From positions 1 through 37,556 of the forward strand of contig JAUYCZ010000021.1 in NCBI GenBank assembly GCA_030704795.1: DNA of 37,556 bases, in the 5' to 3' direction. The position numbers and the translations under genes are program-made. The first letter of the stretch is position 1; every line of letters starts with the position of its first letter. Origin of the DNA: a bacterium (GTDB lineage Bacteria; Patescibacteriota; Minisyncoccia; Minisyncoccales; GWA2-46-15). The notes below the pieces were generated by a model that was given only the letters and a program-made list of their open reading frames with translations, made no database searches and was not told the origin of the DNA. Shown here one piece after another: positions 6,652 through 20,507 of this stretch.

Positions 6652-6709
6652 TTGACAAATATCATAAAAGATGTTATAGCGAGTACGATATATCGCTTCG
6701 CGCTATAAT
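6652..6709 (+). promoter_or_regulatory. Sigma70 promoter whose -10 box is interrupted by palindromic element A
   Basis: TTGACA 6652-6657, 17 bp spacer, then TATA[element]AT. Confidence 0.55.
6674..6708. repeat. Two-hairpin palindromic element, copy A
   Basis: TTATAG CG-AGTA-CG ATATAT CGC-TTC-GCG CTATAA. The first 22 nt are identical to copy D (19398-19419). Confidence 0.9.
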
Positions 6710-7320: not shown

Positions 7321-7368
7321 TTATAGCGAGCGGGACGCCGCTCGATATATCGAATCCTATTCGCTATA
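7321..7368. repeat. Two-hairpin palindromic element, copy B
   Basis: TTATAG CGAGCGG-GACG-CCGCTCG ATATAT CGAAT-CCT-ATTCG CTATA. The last A is the A of the ATG at 7368. Confidence 0.9.
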
Positions 7369-15062: not shown

Positions 15063-17306
15063 GTGAGTAAAAACAACAAGAATCACAATTCAAAGAACTC
15101 TCTTTCGAAGAAAGACAAGGAACCAAAGTCCTTGTTCCTTCCGGCTTTAGCCCAGGGCTATCTCTTGGGCTTAGTTTTTCTCTTAGCGGCGGCCATTCTC
15201 ACTCTTTCATTTTTCGATTTGGCCGGCGGGGGAGGAGAAAAAATTCTCAGTTCCCTCACTTTTTTGTTCGGCCAGGAGACGATCCGGTTGCTGCCTTTGT
15301 TTTTGATTTTGGTCGGCGTCTTCTTTTTTGTCGTCAGCCCGAATTCTCAGAAAATCTGGAAAATGATTATTCTGGCGCTTTTTTCCTGTTTAATCGGCCT
15401 GAGCGCGGTTTTGACTTCTTTAAACGGTTATGACAAATTCTCTTTGAGCGATCCGGGGCCCGGTGGTTTTCTGGGACGCCTTTTGAGCTGGCCCATTCTC
15501 AAGATATTTGATTTCTGGGTCAGTCTGGCGGTTTTCGGGGGCTTGATCATCTTTGGCTTTTTTATCTTTTGGCAGGTGAGCCGGAAGATTCGGCCCAAAG
15601 AGGTTGAGGATCTGGCGGAAAAGCCCCAGGCGCTCCAGAGGAGCATCCGGAGGATTTTTGAACCCCAGCTCAAAATTAAAGAAATCTCGGACAATAAATC
15701 CCGTTCCCTGACGGGAGCGACGCCTTTACCCGAACTCAAAACCAAACCCATTCCCCAAGGGATGAGATCATCAATCTACAAAAAACCACCTTTGGATTTA
15801 CTGGAAGTTGATCGGGGCGAACCCGTCACCGGTGATATCCGCAACAACCTGACCATTATTAAAAAAACCTTAGAGACCTTTGGCATTCCCGTGGAAATGG
15901 GCGAAGTTAACGTTGGTCCGACCGTCACCCGATACACCTTAAAGCCGGCCGAAGGCATCAAACTTTCTAAAATCACCACTCTTAATAATGATCTTTCCCT
16001 GGCCTTGGCGACTCATCCCATCCGCATCGAAGCGCCGATTCCGGGCCAGTCCTTGGTGGGGATTGAGGTTCCCAACAAGGTCCGAACCCAGGTCAGATTG
16101 CGTAATCTTTTTGAATCGCCGGAATTCCAAAATTCCAGTTCATCTTTGGTTTTTGCTTTGGGCCGGGATGTCGCCGGCAACCCTCTTTTTGCCGACCTGA
16201 CCCGCATGCCGCATTTGCTGGTAGCCGGATCGACCGGCACGGGCAAAACCATCTGTTTAAACAGCCTTATTTTAAGCTTGATTTATCGCAATTCACCCGA
16301 GGTGATGAGGTTGATCCTGGTTGACCCCAAGCGGGTGGAGTTCCCGGTTTATCAAGACATCCCCCATCTTTTGTCCCCCGTTATCTTTGACGGCCAGAAA
16401 ACAATTAATACCCTAAAATGGCTGGTTAAGGAAATGGAGAGACGTTTCGAAGTTCTGGCTCAGGCTAAAGCCCGGGACATCGGCGGGTACAATCGCGAGA
16501 TCAATTCCCGTCGCGCCAAGACCTCGGTCAAAAATGAGGAAGAGGATTTGGACCCCATGCCCTACATTGTCGTCGTCATTGACGAGCTGGCCGATTTGAT
16601 GGCCGCCCGCGGCAAAGAGATTGAAGGCGGCATTGTGAGGCTGGCCCAGATGGCCCGCGCCGTGGGCATTCATCTGGTCGTGGCCACGCAAAGACCGTCC
16701 GTGGAAGTCATTACCGGTTTAATCAAGGCCAACATTACTTCCCGGATTACTTTCCAGGTGGCTTCACAGGTTGATTCCCGGACTGTCATTGACATGGCCG
16801 GAGCGGAAAAGCTCCTGGGCTCCGGCGACCTGCTCTTTATCTCTGCAGAAACGGCTAAGCCCCGCCGGATTCAGGGCGGTTATGTCACGGATAAAGAAGT
16901 CAAAAGAGTCACCGAGTTTTTGAAAACTCAAAAACATGACTTTGCCGCTTTGAAAGAAAACTTTTTGGCCGAGGAATTGGAAAGAGAACTGGCCGTCGGG
17001 GAACCCGACAGGGGCGAGTTTTATGCCGGCGAGGAAGACCCTCTCTATCCCCAGGCCAAGCAATTGGCGATTGAATCCAAAAAAGCTTCGGCTTCCCTGA
17101 TGCAGCGCCGGTTAAGAGTGGGCTATGCTCGGGCGGCCCGGCTCTTGGATATTCTGGAAGAAAGAGGCGTGGTCGGACCGGCCGACGGCGCCAAACCCCG
17201 GGAGGTTTATCTGACCGGCGAAGTCAAAGAAGAAGAAAGGGGTGTTCCCATTAAGATTCAGAGGCCGGGGGGAGAAAAACAGGATGACGAATGGGAGAAG
17301 GTATAG
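15063..17306 (+). CDS. ftsK: FtsK/SpoIIIE DNA translocase
   Basis: N-terminal TMs, [30 protein letters not shown], gamma domain [18 protein letters not shown]. Confidence 0.97.
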
Positions 17307-17326
17307 ACAATTTTCAATCAATTACA

Positions 17327-18334
17327 ATGGTTAAGAAAAACCCAGAAAAAAAAGAAACAGGCGTCCGCAAGGATTTGCTGGAAGCGGTGGCCGAGATCAG
17401 ACAGAGATTTGGCGAGGGCGCCATTATGAAATTAAAAGACGTGAGGGCGGTCGATGTTGACGTTATCCCCACCGGCTCGCCTTCTTTGGATTTGGCTCTG
17501 GGCGTGGGCGGCGTTCCCCGCGGCCGGGTCGTGGAAATATTCGGCCCCGAATCGAGCGGAAAAACAACCTTGGCGCTGCACATCTGCGCCGAAGCCCAGA
17601 AGACGGGCGGGGTGGCCGCTTTTATTGATGTCGAGCACGCTTTGGATCCGGACTACGCCAGAAAAATCGGGGTGGCGGTGGAAGATATTCTCATTTCTCA
17701 GCCCGATTCCGCGGAAGAGGCCTTACAGATCGTGGAAACCTTGGTTCGATCGAACCAGGTTGATGTCGTTGTCGTCGATTCCGTGGCCGCCTTGGCGCCC
17801 AAGAATGCCATTGAATCAGAGATGGGGGAGTTTCAGATCGGTCTTCAGGCCCGGCTCATGTCCTCGGCTTTGCAAAAGCTTTCGGGCGCCATCTCTAAGA
17901 GCAAGGCAACCGTCATTTTTCTTAATCAAATCCGCATGAAGATTGGCATCATGTTTGGTAATCCGGAAACTACTTCCGGCGGTCTAGCTCTTAAGTTTTA
18001 TTCTTCGGTGCGGATTGATTTAAGGCGGATTGCCCAGATCAAGCACGGGGAAAGCATCATTGGTTCCCGGGTCCGGGCCAAAATCGTCAAGAACAAAGTG
18101 GCCGCTCCCTTCCGCCTCGCCGAATTCGACATCTATTATAACGAAGGCATTTCCTATCTCACCGATCTTTTGGCTTTGGGGATAAAGCAGGAAGTGATTA
18201 AGAAATCCGGCAGCTGGCTGGACTTTGGAGAAACGAGATTGGGCCAGGGAATCGAAGCGGCCAAACAGTTCTTAAAGGAAAATCCCAAGATCGCCGAAAA
18301 AATCAGGCAAGCTGTTTTCGCTTCGCAAAAATGA
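17327..18334 (+). CDS. recA: Recombinase RecA
   Basis: [54 protein letters not shown]. Probable start is the ATG at 17327. Confidence 0.98.
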
Positions 18335-18411
18335 AGATTTTGCTTCGCAAAAATAAAAAAGACAGTTTTTGCTGCCCCCGGTACTTAAAATTCAAAGTTG
18401 TATTTTGAGTC

Positions 18412-18609
18412 TTACCTCATGACGTAAGGCAGCAAGGCTAAGAAGCGGGCTCTTTTGATGGCCTGGGCTAATTTCCGCTGGTGGCTGGCGCAAACGCCGG
18501 TTCTTTTTTTGGCCCGGATCTTGGCCAAACCCGAAGTAAACTTCCGGAGAAGCTCTAAATTTTTGTAATCGATTTCTTCAATGCCCTTTTGGCAAAAAAA
18601 ACAATCCAT
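18412..18609 (-). CDS. rpsR: 30S ribosomal protein S18 (zinc-binding C+ form)
   Basis: CFFC..IDYKN..LL..F...KI...RTGVC..HQR.LA.AIKRARFLALLPY. Confidence 0.97.
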   Translation of the reverse strand: MDCFFCQKGIEEIDYKNLELLRKFTSGLAKIRAKKRTGVCASHQRKLAQAIKRARFLALLPYVMR

Positions 18610-18615
18610 GAGTCT

Positions 18616-19293
18616 TTAGATTAAATAAGCTAAATTATCATGCTTTTTCATATTTTTAATTTTTTCCAACGGTTGAAGATTCTTTAAACCCCAACACTCT
18701 TTGAATGCCGAATCGCTCGGCGAAATATAATTAAATGAGGATTTTGGTTTTATATGATCAACCACCCAGTAGCTACCATAGTTATCCCAATTCATTTTAG
18801 CGTCAAATCTCTTCTCTAGATATCGTATTAATTCTGTTAAGGTATAATTGACTAAAGTTTTCCACGTTTGCCCAGCCTTTTTATCCTTTAGACAACGAGA
18901 GATAGCCGAGCCCATATTTTCGTCAAGACGATATTTTGGATTTGTTTTTCTCTGGTATTTCCCCCACGCCCCCTTATACCGCAGTAGTTTCTTTTTATTT
19001 TCTCGATTATATTTTCTGTGACATCGTTGCAATCGGATCTTGTTGCGCTGATAATACTTTTTACATTGTTGCAGTATTCTATTTTTGTTTATCCGATACC
19101 ATTTCTTATGATATTGGGATACGCGCTCCTTATTGTTTTTATAATATTCTTTGTGTTGTAATCGTACCCTCTTCCGGTTTTTCTGGTACCATTTTTTGCC
19201 GTATAAAGACGTTCTTTTTAATATCCTCTCCTTATTTTTCTGATAATAAGCCTTTTTGTTTTGCCGCTCTTTTTCTTTATTCCTATAGGCCAT
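18616..19293 (-). CDS. Free-standing HNH (HNN-type beta-beta-alpha-metal) endonuclease with N-terminal basic 15-aa repeats
   Basis: C-terminal YLEKRF...MNWDNYG.YWVVDHIKP...CW.LKNLQPL...N motif, six Y/W-Y-x-x-N-K repeats, and strongly AT-rich relative to the flanks. Confidence 0.8.
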   Translation of the reverse strand: MAYRNKEKERQNKKAYYQKNKERILKRTSLYGKKWYQKNRKRVRLQHKEYYKNNKERVSQYHKKWYRINKNRILQQCKKYYQRNKIRLQRCHRKYNRENKKKLLRYKGAWGKYQRKTNPKYRLDENMGSAISRCLKDKKAGQTWKTLVNYTLTELIRYLEKRFDAKMNWDNYGSYWVVDHIKPKSSFNYISPSDSAFKECWGLKNLQPLEKIKNMKKHDNLAYLI

Positions 19294-19332
19294 AATCTGG
19301 TATATTTATTTCATCCAGGCATTCTTTGTTCG

Positions 19333-19373
19333 ATAGCGATCACGATATATCGGGCGGAGTACCGCCCGCTATA
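19333..19373. repeat. Two-hairpin palindromic element, copy C (inverted relative to B)
   Basis: ATAG CG-ATCA-CG ATATAT CGGGCGG-AGTA-CCGCCCG CTATA. Confidence 0.9.
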
Positions 19374-19397
19374 AACAGAAAAACGCTGTGGCCAATA

Positions 19398-19434
19398 TTA
19401 TAGCGAGTACGATATATCGAGCTCTGCTCGCTAT
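19398..19434. repeat. Two-hairpin palindromic element, copy D
   Basis: TTATAG CG-AGTA-CG ATATAT CGAGC-TCT-GCTCG CTAT. Confidence 0.9.
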
Positions 19435-19455
19435 TAATTAAGACCCTTTAAAGTA

Positions 19456-20320
<865 letters not shown>

Positions 20321-20328
20321 ATATTTGT

Positions 20329-20357
20329 ATCTTACCAGAAAAAGATTTGTTTGACAA
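20329..20357 (-). promoter_or_regulatory. Putative rpsF promoter, near-leaderless
   Basis: Minus strand: TTGTCA (20357-20352), 17 bp spacer, TGg-TAAGAT (20334-20329), then ATG 8 nt later. Confidence 0.6.
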
Positions 20358-20385
20358 GGAGATCAAATCCCCAAAATCTGTTAAA

Positions 20386-20495
20386 CCCCGTAGGAATCTC
20401 GAGTAAACCAATCGATTCTCAACGACCAAGAGGCGGAGCCGCCTATCGGCTTAGGCCAATTGTTGACGAAAGTTTGACCAAAGATTCCTACGGGG
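20386..20495. mobile_element. MITE-like element 1 (110 bp)
   Basis: TIRs CCCCGTAGGAATCT / AGATTCCTACGGGG, flanked by direct TAAA (20382-20385 and 20496-20499). No ORF. Confidence 0.8.
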
Positions 20496-20507
20496 TAAAA
20501 TAGAGAT

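Follow-up and report, generated by a model that had tools for sequence, protein, structure and literature searches.

The rpsF-ssb-rpsR operon of a cellular chromosome was found to contain a free-standing gene for a putative nuclease that is predicted to be of the homing type and belongs to an unannotated family. The window, i.e., the whole stretch of DNA that was analyzed, comprises 37,556 nucleotides (nt) of contig JAUYCZ010000021.1 (assembly GCA_030704795.1) from an ultrasmall member of the Patescibacteria that lives in groundwater. Within it, an 846-bp insert separates ssb (encoding the single-strand DNA-binding protein) from rpsR (encoding ribosomal protein S18) and carries an open reading frame (ORF) of 225 amino acids (aa). 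On balance, we favor the interpretation that this insert is a homing endonuclease gene cassette that spreads by means of breaks made by its own product. The original prediction for this region, a homing endonuclease sheltering in an essential operon, was favored by the site-specific but sporadic occurrence of the gene, by an empty site in the closest relative, and by the composition of the gene, decayed copies, a divergent ssb end, and a conserved protein core; the trees, on the other hand, did not show transfer.

On the minus strand, the gene order was rpsF, ssb, the 225-aa ORF, and rpsR, all co-oriented, with recA (positions 17291 to 18334, plus strand) converging on rpsR (Table 1). Both the coordinates and the G+C content bore out the description of a co-oriented, AT-rich ORF that stops 6 nt before the rpsR ATG. 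The G+C content of the ORF in 300-nt windows was 0.32 to 0.38, compared to approximately 0.50 in the flanks, and its G+C content at third codon positions (GC3) was 0.38, compared to 0.60 to 0.61 in ssb, rpsR, and recA. The genome (636,697 bp) has 482 ORFs with a length of 150 aa or more, and among these the GC3 value of the nuclease ORF was the 25th lowest (z = -1.85). Since the neighboring genes had a GC3 of 0.60, a recent horizontal arrival of the cassette in this genome is likely. The closest relative, genome G007, whose RecA, S18, and SSB proteins were 96.5%, 94%, and 91% identical to those of the window, respectively, had no nuclease gene, and its ssb and rpsR genes were 2 nt apart (...CCGTTT-TGA-GA-ATG-GACTGT...). 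The limits of the insert (18610 to 19455) were therefore taken from this junction. The joined form of ssb and rpsR was also present in a contig of runs X2/X3, which came from another groundwater study. Moreover, the earlier claim that ssb and rpsR are normally contiguous held across the order, where the two genes were adjacent at 31 unique sites without the cassette (spacer of 0 to 233 nt; no more than 8 nt at 13 sites). No remnant of the promoter-like start of the cassette was found in the gaps of these 31 sites, including L117 and L120, at which the SSB tail carries a Ser residue (see below). In run X1, from the source sample, a contig of low depth (3.79) had 107 other letters in place of the sequence between positions 18545 and 19460; its probable source is a related organism that does not have the gene, and it was not used as evidence.

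A check of ssb-rpsR synteny in sister genomes, which had been proposed together with the original prediction, showed the gene to be sporadic, with ssb and rpsR contiguous in G007. The gene was found in none of the seven congeners and in none of ten genomes of the same family (genome completeness of 64 to 100%). Among 401 genomes of the order, 17 had a match at an E value of ≤1e-10, and in 10 of these 17 the gene lay beside rpsR in the rpsF-ssb-rpsR operon with recA convergent, although one of the ten loci (L007) ends before ssb. These ten, which represented nine family codes, comprised every match with at least 53% identity plus one decayed copy; the other seven matches (≤52% identity) were elsewhere in the genome. 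A metagenome scan yielded 224 stretches encoding a relative, and 80 loci were kept. Fifty of the 80 were in the ssb/rpsR context (L029 to L077, 49 loci that were 53 to 69% identical, and L091), with rpsR, ssb, or both alongside to the extent that the contig allowed, and these included every metagenome match of at least 53% identity whose contig reached a flank; the other 30 loci were elsewhere. A scan of genome contigs with the single protein as the query returned one locus, from the same record as L010, and a relative with 84% identity (P0002), located on a 3.7-kb contig, was outside the context comparison. After removal of duplicates, 36 unique occupied loci with both flanks were available. 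At these loci, the nuclease gene mostly stopped 3 to 17 nt before the rpsR ATG, and 28 of the 36 copies looked intact. The eight decayed copies had premature stops (L006, L015, L061, and L073), an N-terminal truncation (L012 and L077), a lost C-terminal motif (L032), or only a 74-aa remnant (L091). No partner genes traveled with the nuclease gene at the loci examined. A RecA tree was built from 58 unique rows, of which 30 had the gene, a share that was raised by design; when presence and absence were mapped on this tree, at least 16 changes of state were needed.

The end of ssb next to the insert was itself unusual. At the nucleotide level, rpsF, recA, and the greater parts of ssb and rpsR were 94 to 96% identical between the window and G007. 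The 45 nt at the 3' end of ssb, which abut the insert, differed at 14 of 45 positions (69% identity), compared to 16 of 393 positions in the rest of the gene (96% identity; Fisher P value = 8.7e-8). Six of the 15 codons in this tract differed purely synonymously from those of G007, and the tract is therefore better explained as imported sequence than as selected substitutions. From this comparison, it is a candidate co-conversion tract and/or a candidate cleavage-resistant variant of the target.

A second tract of low identity to G007 was seen at positions 18275 to 18450, where identity was 64% in the last 39 nt of rpsR, 53% in the rpsR-recA spacer, and 70% in the last 60 nt of recA, compared to approximately 96% in the gene bodies. 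The two convergent 3' ends, with the terminator between them, may have been replaced independently here, or this tract may be a discontinuous part of the import at the ssb end.

The 225-aa protein was predicted to have two parts. Residues 1 to 135, which carry the 15-aa repeats, were modeled as eight consecutive helices (AlphaFold; mean predicted local distance difference test score [pLDDT] of 95.6 for the whole protein), and this repeat array would be the DNA-binding part. Residues 7 to 65 were matched by PHROG 7091, annotated as HNH endonuclease, with an E value of 7.6e-6. The lengths of the orthologues (P0003 to P0079) stepped by 15 residues (208, 223, 238, and 253 aa), as would be expected if N-terminal repeat units were gained or lost one at a time. 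The C-terminal motif quoted in the original prediction was present in the translation. In this part of the protein, W169, N171, W176, W201, N205, P208, N214, and K217 were invariant both in a set of 72 and in a set of 85 diverse relatives, and D179, H180, and C200 were at least 90% conserved in both. A wide VIA structure search with the model of the full protein was uninformative, as its matches were dominated by coiled coils that aligned to residues 1 to 104, and the C-terminal domain was therefore also modeled alone (pLDDT of 92.4; predicted template modeling score of 0.82). The order of elements in the domain model was a strand (59 to 63), a loop with a short helix, a strand (89 to 93), and a helix (domain numbering); in the AlphaFold models, in protein numbering, the strands were at 176 to 180 and 206 to 210 and the helix was at 211 to 217 or beyond. 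The Asp-His pair was at the end of strand 1, N205 was at the start of strand 2, and N214 was in the helix. As modeled, these residues are arranged as in beta-beta-alpha-metal (His-Me, HNH-type) sites that belong to the H-N-N kind.

Relatives of the protein were numerous. A word-indexed search returned 378 relatives from Patescibacteria, Nealsonbacteria, Staskawiczbacteria, and Parcubacteria, all named "hypothetical protein," and an exhaustive search returned 27,696 cluster representatives at an E value of ≤0.001, or 10,525 at ≤1e-10. Relatives were encoded in 106 of 50,697 phage records, again mostly as "hypothetical protein," and the nearest ESM Atlas clusters were 90 to 100% viral. For matching to known families, 85 relatives were used (phmmer E value of <1e-30). 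PHROG 1035 (endonuclease VII) was matched by 35 of the 85 (best E value, 6.2e-23), PHROG 2340 (endonuclease) by 15, and PHROG 7091 by 12; NUMOD3 was found in 3 relatives, the Pfam family GmrSD_C was touched by 5, and the Pfam family PF01844 (HNH) was touched by 1 (E value, 0.0094).

A second lineage of the nuclease family occupied a different junction, between a gene for an extracytoplasmic function (ECF)-type sigma-70 factor and a DUF5667 gene, 3' of a gene for a DeoR-like helix-turn-helix protein. This arrangement was seen at 15 loci (L004, L005, L013, L014, L084 to L089, L093, L094, L097, L103, and L107), and the proteins encoded there were approximately 280 to 290 aa long, with an N-terminal HTH_38 domain and Cys pairs.

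A mechanism consistent with these observations would be as follows. The basic, helical array of 15-residue repeats would lie along DNA, and the small C-terminal His-Me-finger domain (HNH type, with D-H..N..N) would nick or cut it. In chromosomes without the cassette, the enzyme would recognize and cut conserved DNA where ssb ends and rpsR starts. RecA-dependent recombination would then repair the break from a copy that carries the cassette and that probably arrived by DNA uptake. Repair would copy the cassette together with the last approximately 45 nt of ssb, and carriers may be protected from their own enzyme by the imported tail (..VSQIPF rather than ..VK[DN]IPF). By analogy, we infer that the codons of the ssb tail may contain the target and that a tail of the Ser type may be the resistant allele. 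Since the genes on both sides of the cassette are essential and co-transcribed, and since it ends only a few bases before rpsR starts, it would be transcribed by read-through and its imprecise deletion would damage the operon. More tentatively, it is possible that the window holds one member of a chromosomal homing lineage that spreads among ultrasmall Patescibacteria by DNA uptake, targets the codons of the SSB tail, and carries a resistant ssb allele, so that each invasion would rewrite the docking tip of SSB. This lineage would then belong to a huge, mostly viral family with modular DNA-reading arrays that vary in the copy number of their 15-residue units, and different lineages of the family would be aimed at different junctions, the ECF sigma/DUF5667 junction being an example.

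The results that weigh against a homing nuclease concern the protein, its site, and the trees. Except for one unrelated weak match, Pfam returned nothing for the 225-aa protein at E values up to 1, and NCBIfam and PADLOC gave no match. A sequence-profile search of the PDB with the alignment of relatives gave no nuclease, only coiled-coil-like matches to the N-terminal repeats (E values of ≥0.11). The original prediction had proposed a fold search as a check; the models did show the strand-strand-helix unit, but Foldseek searches of the PDB with both models gave nothing at an E value of ≤0.001, the best matches (0.29 to 0.43) being to the HNH domain of ZRANB3. A VIA search with the C-terminal domain gave a best Z score of 4.8, which is below the noise guide of that tool, and weaker rows included CAD (Z = 4.5), PacI (Z = 4.0), the GVE2 and Gme HNH proteins (Z = 3.1), and endonuclease VII (1e7d; Z = 2.6). 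Seven VIA rows were titled HNH or endonuclease VII (5h0o, 4h9d, 8f43, 7mpz, 5mkw, 9n6b, and 1e7d), and approximately 12 further rows were ones that we take to be His-Me enzymes (CAD, PacI, Cap5, McrA, BrxU/GmrSD, VcaM4I, Vvn-type endonuclease I, and HNH parts of Cas9/IscB). The structural matches to HNH nucleases were thus individually weak but thematically consistent, and a nuclease nature of the protein is likely. With regard to the site, the divergent tract was present on one flank only, since the first 45 nt of rpsR differed from those of G007 at just 2 of 45 positions. Of the 33 unique ssb ends next to a nuclease gene, 23 encoded a Ser residue at position -5 of the SSB tail, compared to 2 of 31 without the gene; the way in which the search was designed had enriched this comparison for rows with the gene, and its rows are kin. 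When this was reduced to seven phylogenetically independent pairs, approximately four differed in the same way, none differed in the opposite way, and approximately three showed no difference (sign test P value of approximately 0.125), so that the link between the tail Ser and the cassette is suggestive. Moreover, a scan of the operon strand of the leader in the window revealed no sigma-70 promoter consensus. Because of this, the nuclease gene is probably read through from the promoter-like site at 20329 to 20357, the sole operon-strand match between positions 18300 and 20500 in a consensus scan that gave 5 sites compared to 3.5 expected.

The trees leave room for a different explanation, namely that this is an accessory gene of long standing in the order that was inherited vertically, was lost many times, and was kept as an operon member because of a cellular role, for instance in DNA uptake or repair or together with the SSB tail. 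For 23 unique loci (the pseudogene L015 was left out), the nuclease tree and the RecA tree were poorly resolved and broadly congruent, and four approximately unbiased (AU) tests of conflicting clades all failed to reject congruence (P values of 0.29 to 0.45). A few supported conflicts were seen (L007 with L053 and the placement of L062). Pairwise nuclease identity tracked RecA identity (r = 0.68; slope = 0.98), and the nuclease proteins were 53 to 87% identical between genomes, which is above the values for SSB or S6 of the same genomes; such conservation is unusual for a purely selfish gene. Synonymous sites are likely to be saturated at the distances between nuclease copies. Since co-divergence was not rejected, long vertical descent with many losses stays compatible with the data, and it would also account for the 28 intact, well-conserved copies with invariant core residues, for the constant position, and for the tight junction with rpsR; the linked variant of the SSB tail could then reflect a fit between proteins and not a DNA target. 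Nevertheless, we consider this explanation unlikely. The gene occupies the site in 10 of 401 genomes of the order and in none of the ten of its own family, at least 16 changes of state are needed on the RecA tree, and the clean 2-nt junction of G007 would demand a very recent, clean loss. Furthermore, vertical descent leaves unexplained both the GC3 of the gene, which argues for a recent arrival, and the mosaic ssb with its six synonymous changes in 15 codons, which points to an imported tract, and the wider family is mainly viral. It is also conceivable that a selfish or defensive nuclease was imported by ordinary recombination, e.g., by transformation with flanking homology, without cutting its own empty site, and was then kept because it harms incoming DNA or phages or cannot be deleted cleanly. 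Indeed, the composition, the empty site, and the one-sided tract indicate import by recombination but not what made the break. HNH-type domains are common in defense systems (VIA rows included Cap5, a retron HNH protein, GmrSD/BrxU, and McrA), and five of the 85 relatives touched GmrSD_C. However, PADLOC gave no match and no partner genes travel with the nuclease. The recurrence of one lineage at one junction in at least nine families, with a second lineage at another junction, would be predicted by target-specific cleavage and not easily by chance recombination. We therefore regard ordinary import as improbable and retain homing as the favored interpretation.

The leader of the nuclease gene also holds two copies of a hairpin repeat (copies C and D), and the original prediction had offered, as its other possibility, that the nuclease is the cargo or the mobilizing enzyme of a hairpin element. 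Both copies were indeed located between ssb and the ORF, but they occupied roughly half of the 162 nt and did not fill this gap as had been stated. The repeat has the consensus ATAGCGAG-TA-CGATATATCG-(variable GC hairpin)-CGCTATAA; its 21-nt pattern had three matches in the window, compared to none in 100 shuffles, and further copies in the window were at 6675 to 6709 and 7322 to 7368. Contig depth peaked at 19326 to 19382 (235.7 compared to approximately 20), as expected for a multicopy repeat. The adjacency of the repeat and the nuclease, which speaks for a cargo or mobilizer relationship, was seen in the window only, and the genome that contains the window had 18 exact repeat cores but a single nuclease gene. 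With a 19-nt pattern and up to three mismatches, the numbers of copies were 18 in G000, 14 in G007, 40 in G005, 11 in G002, 10 in G003, 1 in G004, and 0 in G001 and G006, and the repeat-rich congeners G007, G005, G002, and G003 were all without the nuclease gene. The repeat was found in none of three genomes of the family from other genera, and controls with reversed patterns gave no matches. Among the loci of relatives that were compared, the repeat core occurred outside the genome of the window only in L097, inside a sigma-factor coding sequence. Without the two copies (approximately 85 nt), the leader would be approximately 77 nt long; leaders of 63 to 75 nt were found in L008, L009, L011, and L039, and this match in length suggests that the hairpins were inserted later into the leader of the cassette. 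Because the repeat abounds in congeners without the nuclease and the loci of relatives that were compared are, L097 aside, without the repeat, the hairpins are almost certainly neither carrier nor cargo but a separate, genus-specific repeat that is unrelated to the nuclease gene and was inserted secondarily. A cargo or mobilizer role of the nuclease is accordingly hardly credible.

With respect to the repeat itself, the inner hairpin varied with compensating changes, and the 3' arm paired with both 5' segments, as if a 14-nt piece with a 10-bp palindrome had been inserted into an 11-bp stem. Copies were often paired, 35 to 45 nt apart. The copy at 6675 started exactly 17 nt after a TTGACA and ended in TATAAT, as if inserted into a -10 box.

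T-even phages are the textbook hosts of free-standing homing endonucleases; to our knowledge, such enzymes have rarely been documented in cellular chromosomes at positions between protein-coding genes. Among named enzymes, the closest catalytic relatives would be HNH/His-Me nucleases of the D-H..N..N type, and we take the nicking homing endonucleases of the I-HmuI type (H-N-N) to be nearest to the window protein in their catalytic residues and their modular build. Enzymes of this type combine Asp-His..Asn..Asn without a zinc site with a long, modular DNA-binding part, and NUMOD3 is a module of such enzymes. I-HmuI is intron encoded and, unlike the window protein, has its nuclease part at the N terminus. 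The searches that were run gave no sequence match and no significant structure match of the window protein to I-HmuI.

In function, the mobA to mobE genes of T-even phages, especially MobE, appear from two reports (PMC2988022 and PMC2790892) to be the closest analogues. According to the former (PMC2988022), free-standing endonucleases of T4 are encoded between conserved genes, cut within a neighbor, and leave tracts of co-conversion behind; mobE, located between nrdA and nrdB, relies on promoters upstream of it; and mob genes encode an HNH domain fused to a C-terminal region. Like MobE so described, the window gene is an HNH-type gene that lies between two conserved, co-transcribed essential genes and would depend on upstream transcription; like the T-even mob genes, it is sporadic among relatives and has a flank with putative co-conversion, and its target would be expected in a neighboring conserved gene. 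Unlike the mob genes, it resides in a cellular chromosome of the Patescibacteria, where no phage coinfection unites donor and recipient. The domain order is also reversed relative to that given for the mob genes, the predicted nuclease part of the window protein being C-terminal, behind the 15-aa repeat array, and the window protein has no Pfam HNH match, its nuclease role being predicted from models.

F-CphI of the DHHRN family, which has the Endo VII catalytic motif, and T4 endonuclease VII resemble the window protein as predicted here, since this kind of enzyme is a free-standing homing endonuclease of phages with a C-terminal beta-beta-alpha-metal catalytic domain. In PMC6083498, the DHHRN/Endo VII family is defined by a central DHDH motif, whose second His is important for catalysis, flanking CX2-4C and CX2C zinc ligands, and a conserved Arg. 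The likeness to HNH and endonuclease VII proteins noted in the original prediction stood as far as the D-H..N..N core on a predicted beta-beta-alpha unit is concerned, and the first Asp-His pair and the distal Asn are shared in kind with endonuclease VII, as is the match of 35 of 85 relatives to PHROG 1035. It did not extend further, however, since the window protein has VDHIKP without the second His (the +3 residue is Lys in the family consensus DHIKP), residues 136 to 225 contain no Cys pairs and a single conserved Cys (C200), and the conserved Arg is missing. Membership in the endonuclease VII/DHHRN family, as defined in PMC6083498, was therefore rejected. LAGLIDADG homing endonucleases such as I-ShaI are described in rRNA introns of candidate phyla radiation (CPR) bacteria in PMC11270868, indicating that homing endonucleases do spread in these bacteria. 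The window gene shares with them the host group and the selfish logic, but it is of a different enzyme family and is free-standing, whereas those enzymes are intron encoded in rRNA genes. In a literature search that covered few of the subscription journals, only such LAGLIDADG enzymes of rRNA introns were found described as homing endonucleases of CPR/Patescibacteria, and none of the papers listed described this cassette.

If the proposed homing is true, it would be homing shown in bacteria that rely on DNA uptake, and it would provide a natural case of a selfish gene dragging along, and so changing, the interaction tip of an essential SSB. It would also give a name and a testable activity to a huge family, present in phages and CPR genomes, that has no Pfam or NCBIfam model. 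The combination of a repeat array with a small nuclease domain could be a source of new sequence-specific nickases.

Table 1. Features of the rpsF-ssb-rpsR region and of the nuclease insert (positions in the window)
Feature	Positions	Strand	Basis or remarks
Promoter-like site 5' of rpsF, TTGTCA-17-TAAGAT with TG	20329..20357	-	Consensus scan only
rpsF (ribosomal protein S6), first operon gene	19895..20320	-	Pfam Ribosomal_S6, E value of 4.5e-16
ssb (single-strand DNA-binding protein)	19456..19908	-	Pfam SSB, E value of 6.3e-34
Last 45 nt of ssb, divergent tract abutting the insert, tail ..EIDVSQIPF (G007, ..EIDVKNIPF)	19456..19500	-	Comparison with G007
Insert, 846 bp, in place of the 2-nt spacer (GA) of the closest relative G007	18610..19455	-	Comparison with G007 (locus L020)
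Leader, ssb stop to nuclease ATG, 162 nt	19294..19455	-	Holds two hairpin repeats
Hairpin repeat copy D, short form TATAGCGAG-TA-CGATATATCG-AGCTCTG-CTCGCTAT	19399..19437	.	Pattern matches; stem also in computed fold
Hairpin repeat copy C, long form with inner GGCGG-AGTA-CCGCC hairpin	19332..19375	.	Pattern matches
225-aa ORF, putative free-standing His-Me/HNH-type nuclease gene, stop codon included	18616..19293	-	378 relatives; single copy in genome
N-terminal domain, residues 1 to 135	18889..19293	-	Six 15-aa repeats ([YW]Y.xN[KR]..), isoelectric point of 10.6, 47 Lys plus Arg
C-terminal domain, residues 136 to 225, core W169-N171-Y-G..W176..D179-H180..N205-L-Q-P..N214..K217 on predicted strand/strand/helix	18619..18888	-	Alignments, models, fold searches
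Codons D179-H180, putative metal ligand and general base, end of strand 1	18754..18759	-	≥90% conserved; catalytic role predicted
N205 codon (start of strand 2) to N214 codon (helix), both invariant	18652..18681	-	Alignments and model
Spacer, nuclease stop to rpsR ATG, 6 nt	18610..18615	-	ORF stop ends at 18616; rpsR ATG starts at 18609
rpsR (ribosomal protein S18)	18412..18609	-	Pfam Ribosomal_S18, E value of 2.6e-22
Terminator-like hairpin 3' of rpsR, between convergent rpsR and recA	18358..18379	-	Consensus scan only

In most other copies, the ssb stop was directly followed by a promoter-like TTGATA-N17-TATAAT, with which the leader opened, and the leader closed with ..AAGAATT-ATG, whereas the leader in the window retained the first bases only (CTTTAAAGGGTCTTAATT), in which it resembled the cassette start of locus L009. 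An Rfam scan of positions 18300 to 20500, leader included, gave no match at E values up to 1. The leaders of L049, L051, L053, and L059 had their own tandem repeats of 45 to 60 nt (..AAGAACCTG.C..CG.CAGAACCTTGATTC..). Because leaders of other genomes hold small repeats that differ from those of the window, the leader appears to tolerate small insertions, and, judged from these sequences, short repeats from several families have landed in it repeatedly. In L038 and L043, the leader was approximately 655 nt long and contained an extra open reading frame starting MNWKSFLKPTKDK.., i.e., a nested insertion in the cassette. At L023, L111, and L131, which are without the nuclease gene, the ssb-rpsR spacer was filled by a shared, GC-rich, highly self-complementary element of 125 to 136 nt (..CCTCCTTCGCTAAAGCTTCGGAAGGACATCCTTCGC...GGATGGC.TGCCATCCGTAGCTCC.AGCGAAG.GAGGAGCGAAGG), which could represent either a further family of repeats or a leader of rpsR.

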